From the NCBI GenBank assembly GCA_051047955.1, contig JBPGPT010000019.1:248001-312000 (forward strand): 64,000 nt of DNA, in the 5' to 3' direction. The translations under genes were made by a program, and so were the position numbers. The notes under the pieces are model-generated. The model ran no database searches. It saw only the letters and a program-made list of their open reading frames with translations, and was not told where the DNA came from. The DNA comes from Cystobasidiomycetes sp. EMM_F5. Taxonomy: Eukaryota. Of this stretch, positions 20,127-50,197 are shown piece by piece. Numbering within the stretch: the first letter of the stretch is position 1; each line of letters begins with the position of its first letter.

Positions 20127-20302
20127 GAAACATCAGGTCGGCTCCGTCTCCGCTCGTCGCCATTGACACTGTGAACGCGCAAACAGGCGATACTGCTCTG
20201 ATGGAATGGACTGTCGAGCCCGCTAATGCGCAATGTCCTGGAGGTGGGTCGAGGCTCGATATTGATATTGATATCGATATCCGACCATGTCTTGATGCTC
20301 GA

Positions 20303-22411
20303 ATGTCGTTCTGGAATCCCAGACCGCGTCCAGCTCACGCCCGACTGGACTCTGTGACGCTCCTTCGCCGTCCTGCCAAAGATGCACAGCAGTCCAGGCT
20401 GTCGTCGCTCAAGAATTGGCGCCTGGCCTTGGTAGCCTGCACGGCCAGCTTTGTATTTCTGTTCGGGTTCCACCTTCTGAGTCACGCAAAGCATGGCACT
20501 TCCCACTTCAGCGCTGGCAGCATTGTCGAGGAGCCTACTTTACAGGATTTATCGCAGCGACCTCGAAACTTTGGGACATTCCGCGATGTGGACGAAACTG
20601 ACGTACACGATATCCATTTGAAGGAGGGAAACAACAAGAATCCGTCAAATAGACTACCGCAACGCTCATCGAGAGTAACAGTGCCGCACATCAAGATTAC
20701 GGAGAGCCTCCCATCTCTCGAAAACTTACCCGCATCATCGCCTCTCCGGCTCCAATGGCTAGCAGCTATTGAAGATCTAGAGAACTATGCTGCGTCAGAG
20801 CTGAAGAAATACCGCCCAAGCGAGTCTTACCCTCGAGGCGTGCCGGGGACAGGTGTTTCTGATACTCTCGAGGCGGTAGCCTTACAGGCCTATCTGGATT
20901 GCGCATCTGGCCATGGTCAGTGGGTCTACGATGCAGCAGGCTCGCATCTAGCGCGTATGAATGCCTCTCTGCCTGTTCACAAGCATTCTTCCCGATTTTC
21001 GAAATGCGACCAATCGTTTTATAAGCATACCGATGGCACCCCTGGCGGCACAAGCTGGAATGTGCGAAGCAGTCTCAAATGGTCGTGGAAGGCAGATGAT
21101 GACTGCAAGACCTTGCTTGCTGACTATCCCAAAGTCAAATCTGCTATACAATCCGAAGCATTTGCATCACCACCTTCGCGGTCAACATTGTGCCGGTTAC
21201 TTGCACACAAGAGTATTCTGTTGATTGGCGATTCGCCGACTCAGTACCTGCTTCACGATCTCCTTCTCGACTACACCAATAGTCGGCCAAATACGTGCTA
21301 CGGCGATCTCTACTGCTCGATGCACAGCATATGCAGTGATCTCGATCTAGGGCGAAGTTTTGTTGGCGATGAGCAGGTCTACGATGCCATCCCGGATCCT
21401 TTAGCTTACTCGGACTCTGAAAGCAAAACAGATAATTCGCAGCCAAGCTTGTTACATGAATACTTCTCGGATATACTGAGGCCGAAAACCACGCTGCTTC
21501 GCTACCGGCGTTCAGACTCTTTCTTCATGAACTCGTCTCCTAGTCATCCGAGGTACTCACCAGTTGCTCTACATCCCGTCACTGGCGTTAGAGAAATCAA
21601 CATGCATTCGTTAGCCGACGCGAGGCGAAGCGATGTGGTCATTGTATCCAAAGCGCCAATCTCGGTGCCGGCGCTCGGGCATCCCGGCCACGATGAAATC
21701 ATGACTCAAATATCGAAGCGTCTGCAAGCAAATGACGCGCATATTTTGGATGTCGTTGGTAATATCCTCCAGATGAGCATTGTTTTGACCCGCCAGGTCT
21801 GGCTGCCTGAGCTGCTGGAAAGCTTGCAAGCAGTCAGGTCTATACCTGCTACCAATCTTATCGTATATCGTGGTGGTTGGAGAATGCAACCGCAATGCGC
21901 AAAGTCTACAATCCACGGAGGTTCCAAGACATCTGAATGGCCCGGTGCTTGGGATCCACAGGGTGATGGACCGCCGCCATATACGTCAATGCCCACACTA
22001 ATCCAATTACTCGGTATCAACAACATCAGCGACCCTGCATTCGTGGATGTGCGCATAACCACGTACAACCTACAAACGGTGTTACAGAATCACATCGGGA
22101 GGAGGATAATCTTGCCCAAGTTCGGAATACCCTTCCTTGACATGGAGACTGCAACAAGCGTTTGGCGCGCGGGCTTCGTGGGCGGAGCTGCCGTAAAGCG
22201 TGGAACTCCTGCTTCGTCTAGCGAAACTAGCCGGGCCGACTGCCTCAGTATGTGTCTTCCTTCGTCTGGCATGGCACTAGAGGAACTCTTCATTGGGTCT
22301 TTGATGCGGTTGCTCGGGTGGGGATGGGCCAGCGGAGACCGTGCTAAGACGTGGATAGGGAATGGGTTCGTGCCTATTCGGGAACGTAAAATGGATATGC
22401 AGAAGCAGTAG
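20303..22411 (+). CDS. Type II membrane PC-esterase/SGNH-like protein (Cap64/Cas3-like), intronless
   Basis: Long uninterrupted ORF; N-terminal TM (LALVACTASFVFLFGFHLL); CASGHGQWVYD, LKWSWKA, SILLIGDSPTQ (GDS) and C-terminal DCLSMCLP resembling the DCxHWCLP motif. Confidence 0.7.
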   Translation: MSFWNPRPRPAHARLDSVTLLRRPAKDAQQSRLSSLKNWRLALVACTASFVFLFGFHLLSHAKHGTSHFSAGSIVEEPTLQDLSQRPRNFGTFRDVDETDVHDIHLKEGNNKNPSNRLPQRSSRVTVPHIKITESLPSLENLPASSPLRLQWLAAIEDLENYAASELKKYRPSESYPRGVPGTGVSDTLEAVALQAYLDCASGHGQWVYDAAGSHLARMNASLPVHKHSSRFSKCDQSFYKHTDGTPGGTSWNVRSSLKWSWKADDDCKTLLADYPKVKSAIQSEAFASPPSRSTLCRLLAHKSILLIGDSPTQYLLHDLLLDYTNSRPNTCYGDLYCSMHSICSDLDLGRSFVGDEQVYDAIPDPLAYSDSESKTDNSQPSLLHEYFSDILRPKTTLLRYRRSDSFFMNSSPSHPRYSPVALHPVTGVREINMHSLADARRSDVVIVSKAPISVPALGHPGHDEIMTQISKRLQANDAHILDVVGNILQMSIVLTRQVWLPELLESLQAVRSIPATNLIVYRGGWRMQPQCAKSTIHGGSKTSEWPGAWDPQGDGPPPYTSMPTLIQLLGINNISDPAFVDVRITTYNLQTVLQNHIGRRIILPKFGIPFLDMETATSVWRAGFVGGAAVKRGTPASSSETSRADCLSMCLPSSGMALEELFIGSLMRLLGWGWASGDRAKTWIGNGFVPIRERKMDMQKQ

Positions 22412-36925: not shown

Positions 36926-39086
36926 CTACTCCTCGCCAACATCACCAAGCGCATTGACGACGCTCAGCCTGTTTCTTCCTCCAGCCAACTGTCTTCCCGG
37001 CTGTCCGTTGCCCGCTTGCGAGTACTGCGAAGGCTGTCTATATGGCCCATCTCCACCTTGCGAGTTCATCGTTCCGGATCCATCAAACCCGTATTCCGGC
37101 ATGTTGCCGACTTGATAGTTGTTTGCGGCGTATGAAGCGATTGATCCCGTTCGTCCCAGTCCGGCGGCAGCTACACCTGCTCCTGCTGCTCCTGCACCCG
37201 CCGCTGCACCGGCACCAGCAGTAGGATGATAGCCGTCCATTCCTCCTGCACCTTCGTATCCAGCTGGACCGCCATACGCCGGCTGAGCATTATTGTAGTA
37301 ATTATGCTGCTGTCCAACAGGATCGTACTGATAATTCGGGTACTGTCCGTTATGCGAGTATGCAGATTGAGGCGGTGAACGCTCTGGAGAGTATTGTGCA
37401 TTTCCAGCATGGCCGTCTGAAGAGTGTGCGCCCGCTGCTCCGTAGTAGGCTGCCATTCCTCCATAGGCACCTGCGCCTGCTGAACCCGCCGCCGAGGAGA
37501 GGAAGGAAGGGTCACGTTCAGACATGACCCTTCCGTTTCCTGCACCTGCGCCTGCACCAGCAGCAAGAGCACCAGCGCCAAGGCCAGCAGCAGCCAATCC
37601 TTTTCCACCACCGTACCCATTCTCTCCCGTCGCTCCTCCGTCATCGAACAGCTCATCGTCATCCATATCGAACCGGTTCTGTCCTGTAGGATGCGTAGGG
37701 TTCGGGTAGAGACCCGCTGCAGTCCCGCCTGAACCCGTTGCGTCTCCCAATTCCGGCCACTTGAAATCATCAGACACCCGATTCTTTCTCCGTCGATAGA
37801 AGAATAGGCCAGCGAGAGCCAAGAGGATCAATGCACCCCCTCCGCCGACACCTGCTCCGATTCCAATCTTTGCAGAGTTGGATAGTCCACTGCTCGATCC
37901 CGTCGTCCCGCCTCCGCTATTGTCTGAGGAGGTGGTGATGGTGATGGGCTGTGTGGTAGTAATTGTCACGCCGGACTATAAACAAACGGATAAGTCAATG
38001 TCGTGTCGGACGAGTGCAAAATCGTCTACTGACTGTCGTGTATACTACGGTAGTGGACTGGGATATAGTAGTGAGAGAGGCACCTGTAGCAGAAAAGACA
38101 GTCATTGTCAGAAACGAGATAAGTAGGCAGTAAAAAATATGCATGAAAGAGTGTCGAGGAGCGGAGAGCGAGAGGAAAGGATGCATCGGCAAAGATGAGA
38201 AATAATGAGCATGTTGATATAATGAGAGGGAAGCAGAGAGGGTGAATCGGGCAGAGAATGAACGCTACGATCGCCTGCTTGCGCATCCTCCGGAGCGGCA
38301 TTACTAAAAGTATGCATGGAAGAGTGTCGTGGAGAGGACAGCACAGGGGGGTTTATGCCTCGGGAAAGTGTTGAAGACCGATGAATGTACGGGATATACC
38401 GGAGAGGGAAGAAGAGTGGATGAAGGGGTATAAAGAATGAAAGACACGACCCTGATTGCGGAGCGCACTCAAAGGAGCGCTTGTTATCGAAAAAGACGGC
38501 GTGCAAAAAAGACGGCGTGCAAAAGAGACTAGAAGAAATGAAATGCGACTGCGTGGACATTGACGTACTACTTTGCGATGTAGTACTGCTATCTGTTGTG
38601 GAGGACGGGGGTGTGGAGGAGGAGTCTGTCGAGGTAGACGCAGACGTACTGGATGTGGCTGGGGACGTTAGACGGGACATTAGACGGAGCGAGTAATGAA
38701 TACGCCGTCAGCATGCCAATTGCAGCAGGATACCAATACCCGCTCACTGCTCGACGTTGAACTACTTCTAGACGACGTCGAAGTGGTCGAAGTTGACGAG
38801 GTTGACGAGGTTGACGATGTGCTTGTCGTCGAAGTGGACGAAGTAGTGCTACTTGTCGTAGTGCTGCTGCTCGGAGTACTCGTCGTCGTCGTCGTCGTGC
38901 TCGTCGTTGCCGGCCTCGTTGTCGTCGGCGAGATGGACAGGCTCCCGGGAAGAGTTGGGGTGACTAGGGTTGCCCTAGAGTGACAGGAGCAGGGTAATAG
39001 TAGAGTATCAGCACCTGAATGGACGTATAATACTCCTCCCCGCTGGCCATATGCCCGATATGTCCAGTGCCCTCATTCAATGCCAT
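36926..39086 (-). CDS. Ser/Thr-rich single-pass membrane protein (Mid2/Skg6-like architecture); start approximate
   Basis: Long TTSS-rich ectodomain exons, TM SNSAKIGIGAGVGGGGALILLALAGLFFY followed by RRRK, Gly/Tyr-rich cytoplasmic tail; 485-nt intron 38084-38568. Confidence 0.8.
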
Positions 39087-39574
39087 TGCCGGATTTGACC
39101 TGTGCTCACATTCTGACGAGTCACCCAATGTTGCGAGTATTGATTGTATATGTATGTGTGTGTATGTGATTATAATGTCGCTCCTCTTGTCTGATGTCGT
39201 TCAAAATGAAAAGACTGCCCTTCTTTGTGCCAACTTTTGACGGAGTCCTCGCAGTGGCGGTGACCGGGCAGTGCATGAGAACATATCACTACAGAGCAGG
39301 GAGAGTGAGAGGGCAGCATATGGCACTAGACGGGCAGGTTGTGCTGGAATATGGGCAATTCGATGGGTATATACTGAGACTGATATATACTAACACTGAT
39401 GTATACCCTGACACACACTAATGCTCTCATAATCCCCGCTTCACACCTCCTACCCACGACATAGCTGACAAGAATCACCTGACAACAAGCAACCTCCCAC
39501 GCGCAGTGCATTGTACTCTCGATGTTCGCACGGGGCATGCATGACAAACTGGACGGTGGGAGTGTCTGAAAAGG

Positions 39575-39736: not shown

Positions 39737-41314
39737 ATGTCTTCACCTGGAAATCGTGGCCGTGGTAACCGTAACCGTGGTCCGAATCACAGGGGTCCCA
39801 AGAATAAGAGACGAGTCATCCCTCGTGTTCCACAAGATGATCTGCTTCCGACAATCTTTGGAGGTCAACACGGTAGGATCCACATAGGCCATTTTCACCT
39901 TGGTAACGGCAGCAACAATGGTAACGGCAGCAACAATACTGCTTCCACACCCACTGTCGACATTGGTCCTCACAACGGTAAGTTTGATACTCTGCGCTTC
40001 CAGACGGCGGGTAAGAAACGTGGCTGACCTCGGATGCGCACTCATGTATGGTACCCTTTATCATCAAAGGACGGACACCCTACGGTGGCGGACGAACGCC
40101 TTACGGTGGCGGAGGACGACGAGACTCCTCTTCGAGCTCGTCTTCAGATGGCAGCGACAGCGGCAGTGTTATGTCGAGAGGAAGTATTCCGCCGCGTAGA
40201 GGATCGTTTGCTTCAATGGCCGGCCAAGGGCCTCGTGCTGGGCAGCGGCCTCAAGGGCAGCAGCATCAAGGGCAGCAACAGAGTGGGGTTCCTCCAGTGA
40301 TGATACATGCTCGGGAACTCAACATCGGTTATGAGTCACGGCCCGGATTGGCAGGCCCAGCACAACAACCACCAGCTCCGCAGCAGCCTCAGTCGAGAGC
40401 ACAAACTCCGGCAGCAAGAAATGGCAACCCAGGCCGTCCGAACCGTACTAGAAGTGCAGTACCGGCAGACGGGCAAGCCCTTGAATTTGCTAATCTCGCG
40501 CAGCAACTTTTGCAACAGGGGGGTAGAGGTACACTAATATATGCACCTAACTCCAATATGACACCTGGCCAGCCTGCAGGCGATTCGAGCGCTTCACAGC
40601 AGCAGCAGCAGCAGCGAAGAGCTGCGCAGCCTGCCCCAAGTCCTCGAAGCGCCGCCTCTGCAGTAGGACATGGAAACTCACGCACGAATGCTCCGTTCCA
40701 AGCTTCAGTCGAGCCTGCTGCTGCCAGCACGCCATCAAGGCTGGGAACCCCTTTGCCCGCCGCAAAAAATGTGCCTGTACTGCAATCGCGCAGCCAGACA
40801 CCACACATTTCGCGAGAGCCATCTCTGGACCGGCAGCAAGCGTCATTGGCGCACCCACAACCGCAACGACCGTCGTCACAATTGCTTAGGAGTGATAATG
40901 CGACAGCGGAACAACTTCTGCGTTCTTCCGGTGCTCCTCACGCATCTGGCCCGCCTTCACGTTACGTTACCTCTGCTTCAGGCTCTCGTACCACGCCGCA
41001 ACTCGTCACGGTGTCTGGTCCTTCCGTAAATTCACGGGTAGGTCAACAAGCAGGCTCCCGCCGCGGCTCCGCGTCATCAGACGTCAGCAACAGAAGTGGC
41101 AGTAAAAGTGAGTTTGTTAACATGTCAAAGCAAAAAGCAAGTGTGCTGATTTTGGTTTGACAATACTACCTGCATTCAGCTCCATTAAGTAAGTCAGCGA
41201 TACCCGTCTTGCCGTTAACCACACCTGATAAGTTTCCTATTAGCTATGGCAGAGACGGCCGCCAAAGTAGCCTTGACCAGGTCCCTGACCGGTTCTAGAT
41301 CATCCCAACGCTGA
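39737..41314 (+). CDS. Orphan disordered protein, tandem-array gene A
   Basis: Exon 1 with RG-rich start and RIHIGHFHLGNGSNN motif, long Q/S/P-rich exon, 9-nt micro-exon 41180-41188, last exon MAETAAKVALTRSLTGSRSSQR*. Confidence 0.75.
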
Positions 41315-41369
41315 AGACAAATCGTTCCCCACTCCAAAAAGACGAAGATTTGTACTCGTCGCCACTCAA

Positions 41370-41760
41370 AACGAAGCGTCCCAAAGTGCGCATAGAAGGT
41401 CTCCACACATCAACCTCATCCTGTTTTACATCGCTAACCCAAAAAAAAATAAGGCAACAAACATGCGCCGTTATTCTCTGTAGACTACTTCTTGTTGTAT
41501 ACTAGTCTTTATCAAAGCTGATGTCCATTTAGCGTCGGTCTCTTCCAGATTTGTCTGATCTTGACCATCAAACAACATGGCACACAGATAACTGGCCTTT
41601 GTTTCGCTCGAACACTCGCAACACGAACTATGTAATGCGGGCAGTGGTCACATCTGTCGTCTGGAGGTTGCGTAAAATATGTCCTGACGACCTGCAGCAG
41701 AATGCACTGCGTCGCAGCGACTTTAAGCTATCGCGGTAGCCAGTCAGACCAGTCACTGGA
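41370..41760 (+). repeat. Duplicated downstream/intergenic block, copy A (core 41459-41508)
   Basis: Aligns by eye with 43735-44055 (GAAGGTCTCCACAC, CATCGCTAACCCAAAA, AAACATGCGCCG, CTGTAGACTACTTCTTGTTGTATACTAGTC, AGCCAGTCAGACCA). Confidence 0.9.
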
Positions 41761-42199
41761 GAAGGTCTAGAAGATGCAGAAGACTTTGCTGAGGGTTTGG
41801 ATAGACTGACTGAGTGACAGAGGGCAGAAATGTGTTGCACTGACGATGGTACTAACGTATGTCTACTGACATATTGATACTCGCTGATGCTGACACAAGA
41901 CGTTCACTCTCTCTTCTCTCATGGACTCTCCATCGTCCTCTGCCCCTCTCCCGCTCTCCCGCCCTATCGCCATCTCACCACATCGTCCCCGCACATGTGT
42001 ACAGCCTGCCGCTGCGCTGCAACCTACCAGGCACCGCGACAACAGTACTTACAGTGCACGGTGGACAGCGCACTTGCGTGTAGGCAGTGCTTACGCTCAC
42101 ACGCTGGCGTACAAGTGCGGATGTGCAGCTTGACAACTCCCTCTCGCTCTTTCATCACCCTCGTCTCGCTCTTTGCCACCCATACCGCTCTCATCCACC

Positions 42200-43631
42200 A
42201 TGGCTGCCCTTCAATTGACTAGTACTCTCGCATATGGCCCTCCTGGACCGAGAAACACAAGTTTGTACAAGGGCAACGTTTATATAAATGCATACAACGT
42301 CAATATCGGTTCAATCCACTATGGACCAGGCTCCAATAACGGGTATAGCCGCCCTACCATCTTCGAGAGTTCTGAAAGCCAAGATGGTAAGTAACAGCAT
42401 CACGGCAGACTTGGTGCACCGAGATGTTAAAATGTATATACGGACGGTTTAAAGATTTTAACAACGACGAACGCAACAGGAGGGAGGCTGTACCTCCAGC
42501 GCAAGTATCGGGTAGATCTGGCTCACGCAGATCGTCGCAGTCCGCCAGATCTCGTGATGGAGCGCCTGTATCTACTTCTGTGGCTCCAGCTCCCAGAATT
42601 TACGCTACCGGACCTGCGCGTAGACAGACTTCAGGTCCAGTACTAAACCACCCTTCGACTCAAGGGCTCCCTCGCGTTCCGGCACGCTCACAAGGTCCGA
42701 TTATCAGCACTGGCCTGGTGCAGCCGGTCGGTCGAGGCATTACGGACAGTGAGTGCGGTGTGGCTCAGCTGAAAGCGTCTAAATCTGACGAGGATGACTC
42801 TTCATGAAATGTAGGCACTCACTCACCTGGAAGAGCAACATCTATTTATGGTGCAGCTGCTGCGTGGGATGCAAACAACGCTGGTAGCCAGTTGATGCCG
42901 CGTCCAAACACCCAACGAACAGCTACAGGTCCGGAGACTATGATTGCCAACGATGTCAGCGCCCCCTATGCTGCTCCGCAAAGGCGGTCATCATCTCGAG
43001 GCAGTCGACGGCCAAGCTCATCTGCTGTCAGCCCAAACACAACATCTGTCCCGCTTCCGACGACAGTTGAAACGGTTCCAAACACGCCTGTCGATCCAAG
43101 GTCGACATCGCGCCGTACAACGCCGATCAGCATGAGACCCGCACTCACGTTGCAGACGGGTGACTTGCCCAGGGATTATTCGCTGACGGATCGTATGGAC
43201 AGCACACCATCTGGACCTCTCGCGAGTAACGGCGTGGCCCTTGATCGTGTGTACGGCTACGAGCCCCAACTGCCTCAATCAACTGTATCTTCAGGGCGAA
43301 ATTCTATTGCTTCACAAGCAGCATATCATGCCAATACGATACGTCGTGGCAGCACCCGCAGCAATAGTAAGCCGTCGTCTTTCAGCCTAACGCACATGCG
43401 TGCAATGATCTAACGAGAGCGTCTCCATCAGTGTCAAATACGTCCGCAACTACTACGCCTCATACTGTCGTCGCTAGAGGCTCAACAAGTCAGCTACCAT
43501 ATTCAATTAGCAGACTCTACGCCAACTCCATTGCTGACTGTTTCTGTACAGATGCTGCATCCGCCGCCGCTGCTGCTGCTATGCGTCGGGCTTCTGTGTC
43601 GAGAATGGCATCGCCAAATATGCAGAATTGA
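42200..43631 (+). CDS. Orphan disordered protein, tandem-array gene B
   Basis: Exon 1 VYINAYNVNIGSIHYGPGSNNG; S/R/P-rich exons separated by GT-AG introns; last exon DAASAAAAAAMRRASVSRMASPNMQN*. Confidence 0.75.
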
Positions 43632-43734
43632 CGGCCTTTAGCGATCCATGGGAAACGGCTCATGTCGATAGTGACAGCCAGGCAAGACGCTCAGCACCCT
43701 GCTACACCAGCTTGGTGATTCTTGCCCATTCAAG

Positions 43735-44055
43735 ACGAAGCGTTCCGATGTGCGCCTAGAAGGTCTCCACACCTCAACATCATACTGTTTTGCATCGCTA
43801 ACCCAAAAAACAAGGCAAGAAACATGCGCCGCTACTTTCTGTAGACTACTTCTTGTTGTATACTAGTCCTTGTCAATGCTTACGTCCTTTTCGCGTCGGT
43901 CTCTCCAGATTAGTAGTCTGACCTTGACCACTAACAACGTCGCCTGCGGATGCACGGCGCTGGTTCCGCTCGAACACTTGCAATAAGAACCATGCAACAG
44001 ATGCGGGCACTGTTCCAGGCTATCGCGAAAGCCAGTCAGACCAACCACTGCGAGC
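43735..44055 (+). repeat. Duplicated downstream/intergenic block, copy B (core 43820-43868)
   Basis: Near-identical segments shared with 41370-41760. Confidence 0.9.
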
Positions 44056-44335
44056 AGCTCAAGGCTGTCACATCCGCAAGGACAGCTCGCGCACACTGAC
44101 GAGCCTGACGCTGCCCTCGTTCTGCTGACTTCTCACGCAAAGTGACCGCTGACTGCTGACCCGCTGACGCTTTCCCAGAGACAGCTGTGCAGATGCCTGT
44201 CGAGGCGGAGCAGACTGCAGACGTCGAGTAGACTATTTAATGCGCACTTGTGCCTTCATCTCCTCTTCTGCTCTCCAGTCCTCCAGCTACAGACTCCTCC
44301 TCCACCTGTCACATCCCCGTCACTAGGGCACCACC

Positions 44336-45917
44336 ATGGAAGACGTAAACCGAGAGACTGGAATGTATATTCGAAGTGATCTTCTAAAATCCAAACAGCG
44401 CCGCCCATCACTCGGACGAAAAGCATCGAGTGACTCGCTGTCGATTTGGGGGGGCCCTAGTGCAGCGTCAGCCAGCAATGTCTTACGAATCACCGGTGGC
44501 AATAATTACTTCAATGGTTTACACATCGGCGGTGGAACAAATTCATCTAGAGCGACGATATACGGCACCTGGAGAGAAGGTCGGTTTTTGTCATCGAGAA
44601 GAAGACGCTCAAGCGTGAAGGGCTGATGACATGTTTCACTCTCTTCAGATGGAAGACGTCCCTCCTTTGATGGGCCGGCACCATTTGGACCACCAGGATC
44701 ACAAGCAGGGATGAGAAGGACATCTGCATCTGATTCTAATCGTGCAGGATCAATTGCTCCAGTAAACAGGCGGACATCCATCCCAGATGCTAATTCAGGA
44801 GGTCCAGTAGGATCAGCCCCGCAAATGGACGGGCAGCCAAACAATCAGTCTGGCTATCAGCGACCGCCAATGCAACAACAGCCTGGTCTGCCCCGCCAAC
44901 CCGGTTACAATCCTCCTGCCCTGGTCCCAGCAGGAGAGATCCGCTGGCTGCCAAATGGGGAGGAATTGGAAGGAATATTCGGAGGTACCGGCAGTGACGG
45001 CGGACGGCAAGGCAGGTCAAGAAGTGGGGGCAAGAGCAAGAAACAACCGAAAGCTCAAAAGAAGGTGTCTACCACACCTCTGGCGAATCCGCGGCAAGCC
45101 AGTCCCGGCGCTCAAGGTAATCAGGCAGCTCCAACGCAGCCGCAGCGTCGTACTTCGTCTACAGCGTCAGCAGCTATGCCGCCTCTTCGAACTACAATGC
45201 AGTCAGAACCTACCTCGCCGGCAGTCGTCAACCCCGGCGCCATTGACCAGCGAGTCCTCCTGGAGGCTGCTTCCCGGCGGTCGTCTGTATCGGTGGGACC
45301 TCGTACATCTGTCAGCAACTTGCGCCAGAGTCCGCCCAAGATCAACACTACCGTCAACTATGGCGCTCCCGCGAACCCAGCACATCGGTGGGGGTCAGTT
45401 GACTCATCTCCAGGCTCAATTAGCAATATGGGTGAGCTCAGTTGGCATTACAGTAATTGACGAAACATGCCGAATGTTTATGCAATACATTTCTCGCACA
45501 ACAGCACCGTCGCAAATCCCAAGCAGACGGAACTCGGGTCAGACCATGGTGGCAGCCATCGCTGCTCAGACCGCCTTGCCAGCATCTGGTCGCGGCTCTA
45601 ATGCATCCTCCGGCCGTAACAGCATCGGTAAGCTGTCTTCTACTGTCAGTATAGACTCGCCAAGGTGACTTAAGCCCTTGTTTTACAGTCTCGGGGAAAT
45701 CAAATTACCAGTCTGCTGGATCAACTCGGTCTTCTGTCAATGGCAGCGTTCCCAGTAAGCCTTGTCTCCTTCACATCGTTCGTGTGCCTTCGCTTACATT
45801 TTATCGATTCTATTTGGTAACTTCGCAGACGCTGCTCAAAGTGCTGCAAGGGCTGCTTTCACCAGTGCTGAACAAAGCCGCAGGAACTCTGTGGCCTCCA
45901 ACACCTCTGGACGTTGA
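44336..45917 (+). CDS. Orphan disordered protein, tandem-array gene C
   Basis: TATTTAA at 44234; exon 1 NVLRITGGNNYFNGLHIGGGTNS; last exon DAAQSAARAAFTSAEQSRRNSVASNTSGR*. Confidence 0.75.
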
Positions 45918-46082
45918 GTGGACAACTCGGCGGAATGCCGTAAACCACAGCAAAAAGAGAACGAAGTGGTCTCCACCCATCTGATCTTACCCATTTTCAT
46001 TCAGTAGAAAAAAGTGCAGCAAACATGCACAACCACTCTTCATTAGACTATTCCTGTTGTAACATCAGCCTTGTTGACTTGG
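45850..46082 (+). repeat. Duplicated last exon + 3' block, copy C (core 46021-46062)
   Basis: Aligns with 48535-48766 (CAAAGCCGCAGGAACTCTGTGGCC, CCAACACCTCTGGACGTTGAGTGGACAA, AAAAGTGCAGCAAACATGC, GCCTTGTTGACTTG). Confidence 0.9.
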
Positions 46083-46388
46083 TCGTACTCATTCCATGTA
46101 ACTATTCTCTATATTTCCTCCAACGATAGATTGCCGTTCCCTATTCTCGTCCTGACCAACATGGCATCCACCCTTCAACAGGCGACTGGCCATGTGCATA
46201 TGCAAGTCTGCAGCATCGCCATGGCAAGGATCCCATTACAACAAGTCATGTTGCACGCACTGCGAACAGTACACTGAGCCAGATCGACTGCGGTAGACGA
46301 CTACGTATATCTCAAGGAAGACTAACGCAGCCCTGCTAATCTCTCGATATGCCCATTGAAGACTCTCCAGCGGAGGTGAAGTGGACTG

Positions 46389-46418
46389 AGCCTGACTGCC
46401 TGACTGCCTGACTGCCTG
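46389..46418 (+). repeat. Short tandem repeat (GCCTGACT)x3+
   Basis: gcctgactgcctgactgcctgactgcctg read directly. Confidence 0.9.
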
Positions 46419-46843
46419 CGTATGTATAGGCTAGCCTGTTGTCTGCGGAGCGCTTTGAGGACATGCCCTAGGTTACCTCTTCAGCACATCAGCGCACGCT
46501 GACTCTAACGCTGACTCTGACACTCACGCTGACGATCTGCTTTGACTGCTGCTTTCGCGAGTAACTGACACCCCCACTACAGAACAATCGAAATGACAAT
46601 GCACATCGGGAGTGCAAAGTTGCGGCAGTGTTGGAGTACCCAGGTCAGGTCAGAGAAGGCACTGCTGACGAACTCCAGCACAGGACAGACGGGCACCACA
46701 AAGACAGCGAGGGTGGCGAGGTTTCCAGACTATAAATGCGACTTCTCCGCAGAAAAGTCCTCTCTACCTTCTTGCGTCTCTTCATTCCCAGTCCTCATCA
46801 CTTCGCTCTACATCTCGTCTGTTCGGATCCCTGTCAGCTAAGC

Positions 46844-48602
46844 ATGCAAACGGGCGGCCCCTTCACCATCTCCGCAACGCTGGTGCCAGCCGCTGTGGTC
46901 CAGCCAGGTCCACCACCACCGCCAAGTCGTCCTCCGTCTCGTTCTAATCAAATTCCGCCCCCACCTCCACCTGGATCTCAAGGACAGGGTCAAATGCCAG
47001 ATGTACTGCGTCTTTCGAGACGAGACTCGCACAACAGTTTGTCCGATCGCTCATCGACTCCGCAGACACCTGTGCTCGGCTACGATCACGGGAACCGCTT
47101 CTGCGTCTCTGGGAACGGGAACGTTCTCAACATTGCAAGCCTGAACATCGGCAACGGACCGAATCATTCTTCCACAACACTGCCTGGTTTCCTGCCCGGT
47201 GGCCATGGCGGTGAGCTTATTGAATGAGCTTATTACATGGTCAATGCCAGTTCTTACGCTGACGTGTAGGTTTATTTTCGCTGAATGATCCGGCTGGCAT
47301 AGGAAAAACTGGTCGACGAGGGTACGGCGGACGTAACCGTCGACGACCATCATCGTCTACTGCATCGCAATACTCGGATACCCATCAAACTCCGAGAGGT
47401 GGTGGCCTGTATCAGCAGCAGCGGTGGCCGACTGGTACACTGCAACAGTTGCCTGTTCAATCACAGGCGCCACAAATTCCACAGCTGCAAGATCGACGGC
47501 AAATTTCCACTGTGCCGGACGGTCGGCCCACAAGTGGCCAAAACACATCTCGTGTCGTCGTTCCGGGTAAACAATATCAGGGGCCCAGCGTTCAGCGATT
47601 GGGACATTTGCCCCCTATTGACACTTCACAGCAGCGCCGATCCACTCAAACTGCACCACCCACTGCGCCGCCGCAGGGTCAACCTAGTACTACAGGACGG
47701 GACCGTTCGGGTTTTCCACAGGCCACCAGCAATCCCAATGGTCCTCCCACACACCGTGTACCGATCTCAGGCGGCGAGGGCAATGAGATGCCTCGTAAAC
47801 CGCAATCTCAACAGCCTACAGTCGAGTCCGTAGACAGTACGCCAGTCATCCCAAATCGTGGCACCGTGAACCAAAAAAGGACGGTGCAGAGTGTCTCTCA
47901 GTCACCGCAAGTCACGTCAACAACTCCGCTGGAGCCGCGCGGAACGTCCTCACAGGCTCTTTATGGTTCTCCTGGGCGCGCCAGTCAGAGTCCAGCCCAG
48001 ATCAGAACTAGCTCCCAGACTAGGCCACTCGGGCTCCAGTTGTCTGAACAGTCACCGAAGACTGGTACTGGGTCGAGAGTGGCAAGCCGAACTTCGTCAG
48101 TTGCCACGTCTCGGCGCACACAAATTCTCAGCACGGGTAAGCTCATTTGAACACAATGGTTGACGAAACATACCGAATGATCATGCAACTCTTTTCCTTG
48201 CGCAACAGCACCGCCGCAAGTTACAGGCAGACGCGGCTCCGGTCAGGGCTCGGAGGTGGGAGCGTCCGCTGCTGATATTGCGTTGCCGCCATCGCGTCGC
48301 CACTCAAATTCCTCCGCTGGCGGCATCAAAATTAGTGAGCTGTCATCAACCGCCAAAATAAATTGTCTCGGAGGCTTATGCATATTGGTCAGCAGCTCCT
48401 CACGGGTCAATTGAGTCTGCTCACGGTAGCGTACCTGGTAAGCCTTTTCTCCATAGATTCGTACCGTTAGATTTCCCTGAGATTTTATCGATTCTATTGG
48501 ATAAACGTCGCAGGCGCTGCTGCAATCGCTGCAAAGGCTGCTTGGACCGGGGCTGCACAAAGCCGCAGGAACTCTGTGGCCACCAACACCTCTGGACGTT
48601 GA
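46844..48602 (+). CDS. Orphan disordered protein, tandem-array gene D
   Basis: TATAAA at 46731; exon 1 Pro-rich then FCVSGNGNVLNIASLNIGNGPNHS; last exon GAAAIAAKAAWTGAAQSRRNSVATNTSGR*. Confidence 0.75.
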
Positions 48603-48766
48603 GTGGACAAGTGGCGGAATGCGTGAACCACACCCAAAAGAGAACGAAGCGTTCTCGGCCCTTCTGATGTTGGTACCAATTTCATCAACAGATAAAAGTG
48701 CAGCAAACATGCGCAAACACTCTCTGTAGACTGCTTCTTGTTGTATATCGGCCTTGTTGACTTGCG
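48535..48766 (+). repeat. Duplicated last exon + 3' block, copy D (core 48705-48747)
   Basis: Aligns with 45850-46082; core also matches copies A and B. Confidence 0.9.
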
Positions 48767-49281
48767 TTGTATCTTTATTACGTGTTGCGCTTCTCATGGC
48801 ATTCATCTCCGCAATTGCACTTGTGTCTGCGATCCCCCAACGTGCACACGGAGACTGTTTCGATGTGTAAAGGCGGACTAGTCATCATCAGGATTCCGCG
48901 CTCACCGGTACGACTGCGGGCAATTCGATTCGACTGGACTGTTGCAGTAATCCTCATCGCCAATCTTGTCGCTGACCTACCAAGATTAAGGAAACTTGAG
49001 GAGAGCAGGAATTTCGAGCCTACTGACAGACTGATGAGCCTCTGTACGGCTCGCTGCCGTCAGCCACGCAGCAAATGGGTGACCACCCTGGTCTACGCCC
49101 CGCACCGCCAGGACGTAGCTAAACATCGATAGGCAGTGAACAGTGCAGCCTACAAAAGCCACATTCTCCAGTCCGGAACACTTTGTCTTTGCTATGAACT
49201 GCTGCAAACAGCTTCATTCCATTCCTGCTCACTTGGACTCGCATTGCACAACCTCACAAACAGTCTAAACCCTCCTCAAAA

Positions 49282-50197
49282 ATGCCACCACCCGGTCATT
49301 CCAACCGCAACACACTGAGTGTATTCAACGTTCAGAGCAACGTTCAGAGGGTAAACTTGAACTGGCTGGGCTCTGTGGCAGACTTGAGTAGCCGTGGGCA
49401 GGGGCAGCGCACTCGTAAGTGCTTTTCGCGTTGTACGATGGCAACAAGGTATTTGATTAAATTTGGAACCCGTGCAGAGCAACGTCCAAATCTTCCTGCA
49501 GGAGGCAACAATGGCCGTGGGCGTCGACGTGGACGTGGTAACTGCGGCCTTGGAAATAATAACGGACAACAACGTCGCGGGTCAGATGCGGCATCAATTG
49601 CGCCATCAAACGCCTCTTCCAATCACACTCAAGCTTCCGGAGGTGCAGGGGCTGCAGCTGATCGCCCTCCGTCGCGAAATGTCAGTCCTGGCGGCGGTCG
49701 TCCACTGCCGACTTCAGGCCCTAGCGTCATCCAACCGTTTGCGACAGGCCAGAGACCTACTACCGCTGAACATGTAGGCGTGCATGGTGAGCCGATGACA
49801 TCAAGTGCTTTTGCATGTCCTCACTCCATCTTGCAGTGCCATCTGACCTCAGTCGCATGCCAATTCTGGACGAGGGTTTGTCTACCGCACATTCATCGCG
49901 GAGATCTTCTGTTGCGTCCAGTACTACCGTCCGTGAGTGCAAGCTGTCATCGATGACCTCGTTAGACACGTTAAGCTAACATCTTGTCTCAAGGCGCCAA
50001 CACTACCAACGAACATCCCGGTGAGCTTGGCATCGGAACTGGTCTTACTAGCAAATAACAACTAACAATTGCGCCTAGGTAACCTCCTGCAAGGAATTAC
50101 AGGCGCCGCCAGCAGTCTTGTGCAGGGCTACAAAAACGGTTTCGCCGCAGGTAATCGTGGAGATCCCCGCTTCCGATTTCTCGGCGGCGGATGTTAA
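49282..50197 (+). CDS. Orphan disordered protein, tandem-array gene E (shorter, more divergent)
   Basis: Exon 1 LSVFNVQSNVQRVNLNWLG; RG/NG-rich exon 2 with QRRGS; SRRSSVASS; phase-consistent introns; last exon GNLLQGITGAASSLVQGY...FLGGGC*. Confidence 0.65.

Follow-up and report, generated by a model that had tools for sequence, protein, structure and literature searches.

The window considered here, a 64,000-nucleotide stretch of contig JBPGPT010000019.1 from Cystobasidiomycetes sp. EMM_F5, contains at positions 39737..50197 an array of five genes on the + strand, A to E, encoding Arg- and Ser-rich proteins in which one short motif recurs far beyond what their composition predicts. R-R-x-S, the classical consensus of the cyclic AMP (cAMP)-dependent protein kinase (PKA), is found 23 times in A-E where 2.5 occurrences are expected from composition, a 9-fold excess (z 13.5) that was reached in none of 1000 shuffles. 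Open frames, splice signals and codon usage establish, as far as sequence can, that the array genes are real, alignment statistics and a shared 3' element likewise that A-D are paralogous, and we have little doubt that all five form a genuine family of tandem paralogues. The function that we favor, to which we give about an even chance, is that of a lineage-restricted and co-regulated family of disordered proteins that would be controlled through phosphorylation at multiple sites by a PKA-type kinase.

The five genes and their relatedness

The ATGs of A-E lie at 39737, 42200, 44336, 46844 and 49282 and successive ATGs are separated by 2463, 2136, 2508 and 2438 nucleotides (nt), in agreement with an initial annotation that had listed five same-strand genes with these starts at intervals of ~2.1-2.5 kb. 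Gene A (39737..41314, +) encodes 452 amino acids (aa), or 449 aa without a doubtful 9-nt micro-exon, and on the basis of the open frame, GT-AG phase-1 introns and codon usage its exons were placed at 39737-39977, 40070-41107, 41180-41188 (the micro-exon) and 41244-41314. B (42200..43631, +; 389 aa) has exons at 42200-42386, 42455-42748, 42815-43366, 43432-43488 and 43552-43631, and C (44336..45917, +; 434 aa) at 44336-44579, 44649-45431, 45505-45627, 45689-45754 and 45829-45917. D (46844..48602, +; 496 aa), which is collinear with C, has exons at 46844-47210, 47270-48136, 48209-48334, 48396-48437 and 48514-48602, while those of E (49282..50197, +; 227 aa), a probable and weakly supported family member, are at 49282-49414, 49478-49786, 49837-49932, 49994-50020 and 50079-50197. 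In each case the coordinates of the gene end with those of the stop codon.

All 19 modeled introns begin with GT, end with AG, interrupt the reading frame in phase 1 and are 50-92 nt long (18 of 18 are GT-AG and phase 1 if the micro-exon of A is dropped), so that what had been claimed for the intron following exon 1 holds for every intron of the array. This uniform phase means that skipping of any internal exon would preserve the frame. Intron 1 of E (49415-49477, 63 nt) is itself in frame and free of stops, and its retention would add 21 residues. The codon-usage score is highest in the annotated frame for each of the five genes, and the synonymous codon usage of the array genes correlates with that of six reference open reading frames (ORFs) of the window with a coefficient of 0.77. 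A short Ala-rich last exon, described at the outset as common to the array, is evident in B, C and D and only mild in E; the last exon of A is instead the counterpart of C exon 3.

The public annotation includes a spliced model, P0003 (786 aa; NCBI KAL7006331.1, hypothetical protein), that covers 44336-48150 of the window and agrees with the exon 1-2 junction of C modeled here. In D intron 1, where two in-frame acceptors lie 33 nt apart (47270-47302), P0003 uses our donor and takes the distal acceptor, 33 nt downstream of the one that we have chosen. It places the 3' exons (3-4) of C in a different frame and then joins them to D by an intron that spans the intergenic region. Since C and D are collinear as far as a common C-terminus and stop position, we regard the C-D fusion of KAL7006331.1 as an annotation error, and C and D, judged from this alignment, as two separate genes.

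The C and D proteins can be aligned from end to end, with 135 identities over 393 aligned positions (z = 11-13 relative to shuffles), and their intron positions match. Full-length alignments of A-B, A-D and B-C give z values of 3.2-5.8 that are matched by only 0-1 of 300 shuffles, the A-C alignment is marginal by the same measure and that of B-D does not rise above shuffles. These alignments, the matching introns of C and D and a 3' element confined to A-D (see below) mark A-D as paralogues. The further claim that the long middle exons barely align is correct for most pairs, BLASTP returning E values of at least 0.009 for those other than C-D, and fails for the collinear C-D pair. We include E in the family as a probable member by virtue of its position, intron phase, composition, a weak similarity of its exon 1 to that of B (the score is reached by 16 of 1000 shuffles) and an RRxS-type site close to its C-terminus.

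Charge, disorder and RRxS sites

The middle exons are rich in S, G, P, R, A and Q. The fraction of disorder-promoting residues is 0.60-0.69 in every protein, and the charge-hydropathy boundary likewise classes all of them as disordered; the disorder that we predict for the long exons is thus composition-based. Arg is far in excess of Lys and Cys is nearly absent, with a net charge of +15 to +33 and isoelectric points (pI) of 11.2-12.0, the value for A being 11.97. No recognizable domain or transmembrane segment could be found, as had been stated initially: the 11 ORFs of at least 130 aa inside the array match no Pfam family at E ≤ 0.001, and Kyte-Doolittle means over 19 residues do not exceed 1.08.

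The RRxS sites are distributed over the entire family, with 3 in A, 5 in B, 8 in C, 5 in D and 2 in E, and for B and C taken singly the observed number was reached in 1 and in 0 of 2000 shuffles, respectively. Fully 23 of the 35 RR dipeptides are followed by xS. The excess is directional, the mirror motif SxRR occurring once and not being enriched, and the other signatures that we counted are not enriched either, including RxRxxS (1 occurrence), RS/SR dipeptides (62 vs 53.7 expected, 131 of 1000 shuffles), RG (24 vs 21.7), RGG (1 vs 2.5) and SP/TP (35 vs 45). Specificity of the enrichment for RRxS favors a PKA-type kinase over SR-protein or proline-directed kinases, and the early suggestion of a function that depends on short motifs and is phospho-regulated is directly backed by this directional excess. 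Carrying as they do an R-R-x-S/T enrichment beyond composition, A-E are candidates for the multi-site substrates of PKA-type kinases, a functional class and not a homology family.

The positions of the sites are also shared to some extent. RRxS is found at three aligned positions of C and D, against a background identity of 34%, and in each of the five proteins one RRxS lies 3-33 residues past the exon 1/2 junction. One site near the C-terminus of all five conforms to RRxS[VA][AS][ST/R], a pattern that was defined after inspecting the data and that is absent from the 1148 other ORFs of the window. An RRNS-type site also appears in P0004, an acidic, repeat-rich protein of 2426 aa from the Logan collection, where it forms part of a short repeat, followed after a few residues by a G-Y-D-H-x-N-K core, that is present in ~13 copies and resembles D at 47027-47098, just before the N-terminal block discussed below. 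P0004 was rejected as a relative of D, each copy of the repeat scoring at most 27 bits and the low E value arising from summed repeats, and the resemblance is due either to chance or to convergence on a short linear motif.

The charge of A-E raises an alternative explanation, namely that they are basic intrinsically disordered proteins (IDPs) of the nucleus or nucleolus, of the SR, RGG or protamine type, for which binding of RNA or DNA would be primary and phosphorylation secondary. We consider this unlikely, if still worth taking seriously. The high positive charge, the preponderance of Arg and the pI values are in its favor, as are basic patches rich in RG just after intron 1 in A, D and E and basic clusters that resemble nuclear localization signals, and like SR/RGG-box proteins A-E are Arg/Ser/Gly-rich, very basic and disordered. 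Unlike those proteins, however, they are not enriched in RS/SR, RG or RGG by the counts given above, and neither an RRM nor any other RNA-binding domain was detected.

Non-coding elements and the search for relatives

In the five 700-nt regions upstream of the genes the pentanucleotide CTGAC has 28 copies on the + strand and 6 on the - strand. Random sets drawn from the rest of the window contain 5.8 copies on average and at most 14, and none of 5000 reached 28. The + strand copies are clustered at 39408-39483 (A), 41684-41894 (B), 44096-44168 (C), 46392-46669 (D) and 48972-49027 (E, 2 copies only), and the five 500-nt bins of the whole window that are richest in CTGAC are each located upstream of one of the genes A-D. 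A TATA-like box is found on the + strand at 46731-46743 in D (-113), in the region 44231-44246 in C (-102), at -162 in A and, in weak form, at -131 in E; none was found upstream of B. The proximal 200 nt before the five ATGs show no alignment beyond a C/T-rich leader. The promoter motifs that the initial annotation had described as shared are therefore present in strength in the case of CTGAC, and taken together the shared non-coding motifs are consistent with the co-regulation that had been proposed.

At the DNA level similarity among the array genes is limited to their 3' parts. The 3' non-coding blocks of A (41362-41649, +) and B (43726-44015, +) are about 80% identical (0.81), similarity starting only past the stop, with the last coding exons at a baseline of 0.52. 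The corresponding blocks of C (45394-46081, +) and D (48096-48764, +) are ~71% identical and include exons 3-5, their introns and the 3' untranslated region (3'UTR), with identities of 0.76 for intron 2, 0.66 for exon 3, 0.77 for intron 4, 0.48 for exon 4, 0.87 for exon 5 and 0.80 for the 3'UTR; exon 1, intron 1 and exon 2 are at the shuffle baseline (~0.5). Intron 4, better conserved than the adjoining exon 4, includes in both C (45789-45820) and D (48473-48504) an exact shared stretch of 17 nt with an ATCGAT palindrome. An antisense open frame of 212 codons (48246-48881, -), overlapping D at its 3' end and in its 3' block, has no Pfam match and is probably a by-product of sense-strand composition.

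A core element of ~50 nt is located 98-182 nt past the stops of A-D on the + strand, at 41454-41503 (A), 43815-43864 (B), 46016-46065 (C) and 48700-48749 (D). It joins A, B and D directly, C having been added through alignment. Four exact matches were obtained, behind A-D only, with 5 matches vs 1.2 expected when up to 2 mismatches are allowed, and neither half of the core has another exact occurrence in the window. E is without the element, so that the shared 3' blocks of the initial annotation extend to A-D and not to E. A coding role for the core was rejected in view of 1-nt indels between copies (the A/B block has indels of 1 and 3 nt). A mini-ORF of 6 codons (ATG..TAG) does occur at the same spot in A (41463-41483), B (43824-43844) and D (48709-48729), with 2 of 3 A/B differences synonymous and the stop lost in C by an indel, and is probably a coincidence. 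With no Rfam family at E ≤ 1, none of 7 predicted pairs showing compensatory changes and ordinary folding energies (z-scores of 0.08 and 1.06), a structured RNA could be rejected. The 3' conservation fits both selection on an element of the 3'UTR/poly(A) region and local gene conversion.

Searches for relatives of A-E gave no homologue. Exon 2 of A retrieved only itself among 8000 scored candidates and exon 2 of D nothing among 1322. When 73 residues from exon 1 of D were compared exhaustively by phmmer to 1.84 billion representatives, 7 matches were obtained at E ≤ 0.001, of which 2 are the window's own products and 5, each inspected, are long, internally repetitive and unrelated proteins. 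There was no usable match in the ESM Atlas and none in the PDB, and a literature search, which did not cover supplements, returned no description of such a family. Assignment to a characterized family, which the initial annotation had named as an outcome that would speak against its reading, was sought in Pfam, the PDB, the ESM Atlas and by phmmer with a negative result throughout.

The host can be placed with the aid of a neighboring gene, SDE2, whose closest named relatives are from Pucciniomycotina yeasts at about 45-50% identity, unnamed environmental sequences reaching 60-71%. In addition KAL7006331.1, a 100%-identical protein and a singleton at 90% clustering, is labeled Cystobasidiomycetes sp., and the two observations together establish the host as a basidiomycete and not an ascomycete. 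Synteny in relatives around ATP1, at the far side of the array from a putative Ser/Thr sensor, had been suggested as a check. We examined 80 metagenome loci with an ATP1 exon, the best 88-91% identical, and found no window gene besides ATP1 in common and nothing resembling A-E (best tblastn E 0.26). The putative sensor itself, upstream of A at 36929-39072 (-), is Ser/Thr-rich, which makes the label plausible, and its match to Mid2 (E 0.092, 13 bits) is below the cut-off of 23.2 bits, which leaves the label unproven. Elsewhere in the window an open frame of 760 codons (20129-22408, +) has no Pfam family at E ≤ 0.001. No relatives of A-E are detectable, and the description of the array as lineage-specific is weakened by a sampling of the lineage so thin that the closest named SDE2 is only ~50% identical; A-E constitute a new protein family, one that has so far been found only in this thinly sampled host lineage.

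The absence of homologues and of any RNA run listed for 40001-50000, together with coding DNA that is at the shuffle baseline between paralogues outside the intron-containing 3' blocks and a ratio of nonsynonymous to synonymous substitution rates (dN/dS) of ~0.55 for C-D, could also be explained if A-E were fast-evolving, marginally functional orphan duplicates whose shared features are left over from recent tandem duplication and gene conversion, some of them in the extreme being mis-modeled or untranslated. We view this as improbable. Open frames of 227-496 codons persist in every gene although divergence is saturated, the codon usage of each favors the annotated frame, RRxS has been retained with its directional enrichment in every member and intron phase is conserved, as are intron positions in C-D.

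The N-terminal block and the proposed role of the family

Exon 1 of each gene ends 10-20 residues past a G/N-rich block with alternating hydrophobic residues, which alignment and pairwise statistics place at 39842-39976 (A), 42251-42385 (B), 44456-44578 (C), 47072-47209 (D) and 49297-49413 (E), all on the + strand. The block comprises two short alternating-hydrophobic stretches with G/N turns between them and the end pattern phi-x-phi-G-x-G-x-N. In Smith-Waterman comparisons of exon 1 none of 1000 shuffles reached the scores of A-B and C-D, four further pairs were matched by 13-34 of 1000 and the remaining four of the ten pairs were at chance. Leave-one-out hidden Markov models (HMMs) assign the omitted member 1.3, -0.2, -0.2, 6.6 and -4.0 bits. 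The HMM built from all five finds only A-E among 1374 window ORFs of at least 30 aa, which is so by construction, with a runner-up at E 0.74 and no sixth copy in the window. Given the alignment of the five sequences, AlphaFold2 models A exon 1 with a mean predicted local distance difference test (pLDDT) score of 51 and without strands or other secondary structure. Four of the five exon-1 peptides have no Pfam family at E ≤ 10 by hmmscan, the fifth giving a 12-bit chance match, and a search of the exon-1 profile against PDB chains returned a single chance match (E 1.9). The N/G-rich motif is present in all five proteins as claimed, and is a real positional feature but a weak sequence motif.

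Such blocks bring to mind the amyloid signaling motifs (HRAM, PP, sigma, PUASM), which are defined by their position on the N-termini of fungal NLRs and the C-termini of effectors encoded by adjacent or paired genes (PMC9815663). The exon-1 block shares with them a short G/N-rich, alternating-hydrophobic stretch near a protein terminus, and the A-B and C-D exon-1 scores lend some weight to the idea that it templates cross-beta stacks, be it among the paralogues or together with a receptor. Amyloid or prion-like signaling or assembly is nevertheless very unlikely, because the block precedes 180-400 disordered residues and sits on neither the N-terminus of a NACHT/NB-ARC NLR nor the C-terminus of a HeLo/MLKL/SesA/PNP_UDP-type effector, none of 87 window ORFs of at least 130 aa has a NACHT, NB-ARC, HeLo or MLKL-type domain by Pfam, the amyloid-motif families HET-s_218-289, NACHT_sigma, Ses_B and RHIM give no match to the block at E ≤ 10, no solved chain matches beyond chance, the leave-one-out scores are about zero and basidiomycete amyloid signaling is proposed for Agaricomycetes only (PMC9815663), whereas the host here belongs to the Pucciniomycotina. 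The comparison with amyloid signaling made in the initial annotation is thus not one that we retain, and an amyloid or condensate reading of A-E is speculation.

A second comparison had been made with the septal-pore-associated (SPA) proteins of Pezizomycotina, which are lineage-restricted, disordered and free of domains. A-E are similar in all three respects, compared by description only. SPA proteins are found, however, in filamentous ascomycetes that bear Woronin bodies, and the host of A-E is a basidiomycete yeast; the comparison presumes an ascomycete, and the SDE2 relatives and the 100%-identical protein point instead to Pucciniomycotina, Cystobasidiomycetes.

We return to the reading in which A-E are substrates that a basophilic, PKA-type kinase phosphorylates at multiple sites. 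Such modification would switch the net charge, +15 to +33 in the unphosphorylated proteins, and hence the binding to a polyanionic or protein partner, while the N-terminal block of ~45 residues may serve as a docking or self-association module. Joint expression would be ensured by a CTGAC-binding factor and a factor that binds the 3'UTR. That PKA-type phosphoregulation is the working principle of the family seems to us, from the pattern of sites, about as probable as its opposite.

A number of points weigh against this picture. A hydrophobic residue at +1 is present in only 11 of the 23 RRxS sites, and RRxS is a consensus, not a proof of phosphorylation, that other basophilic kinases read as well. 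The full-length alignment of E to A-D is indistinguishable from shuffles, and for C-D a dN/dS of ~0.55 with saturated dS indicates only moderate constraint. The conserved 3' blocks include introns and would fit recent gene conversion no less well than selection. The exon models follow from sequence logic alone, and the public annotation differs at the 3' end of C and joins C to D. For a lineage so thinly sampled, 'orphan' is to be taken as the lack of a detectable relative among few sampled neighbors.

The nearest functional analogues, and they are analogies, are disordered PKA targets. Rim4 is reported to be an RNA-binding protein whose assembly depends on its intrinsically disordered region (IDR) and is prevented by Ras/PKA signaling (PMC10690475), and Ustilago maydis Hgl1 can be cited as another disordered target of PKA (PMC7766764). 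A-E resemble the Rim4 IDR and Hgl1 in having disordered regions dense in basophilic-kinase sites, a likeness of description and not of sequence, and they differ from Rim4 in having no detectable domain and in that their phosphorylation is deduced from the consensus. By extension the N-terminal beta-prone blocks might co-assemble into a reversible amyloid-like or condensate scaffold while the 2-8 RRxS sites per chain are unphosphorylated, a proposal that we rate as a long shot. It is equally a long shot that cAMP/PKA would dissolve such an assembly by charge reversal, with dosage and heterotypic mixing set by tandem duplication and the common promoter and 3'UTR elements.

We consider the array a well-described orphan family and not a demonstrated new mechanism or kind of system; the term 'system' used initially is too strong, since joint action of the five genes is without support. 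One immediate result is the correction of a public annotation in which two array genes are fused. A PKA-gated module, should it exist, would reproduce the logic of the Rim4 IDR in stand-alone form and without domains, and would be confined to Cystobasidiomycetes. If the favored reading is correct the array would provide a compact natural case of a domain-free family held together across deep divergence, in which the survivors are short linear motifs (RRxS and the 45-residue N-terminal block), intron phase and non-coding control elements, and it would supply candidate targets of cAMP/PKA that lend themselves to experiment, from a class of basidiomycete yeasts on which hardly any molecular work has been done.

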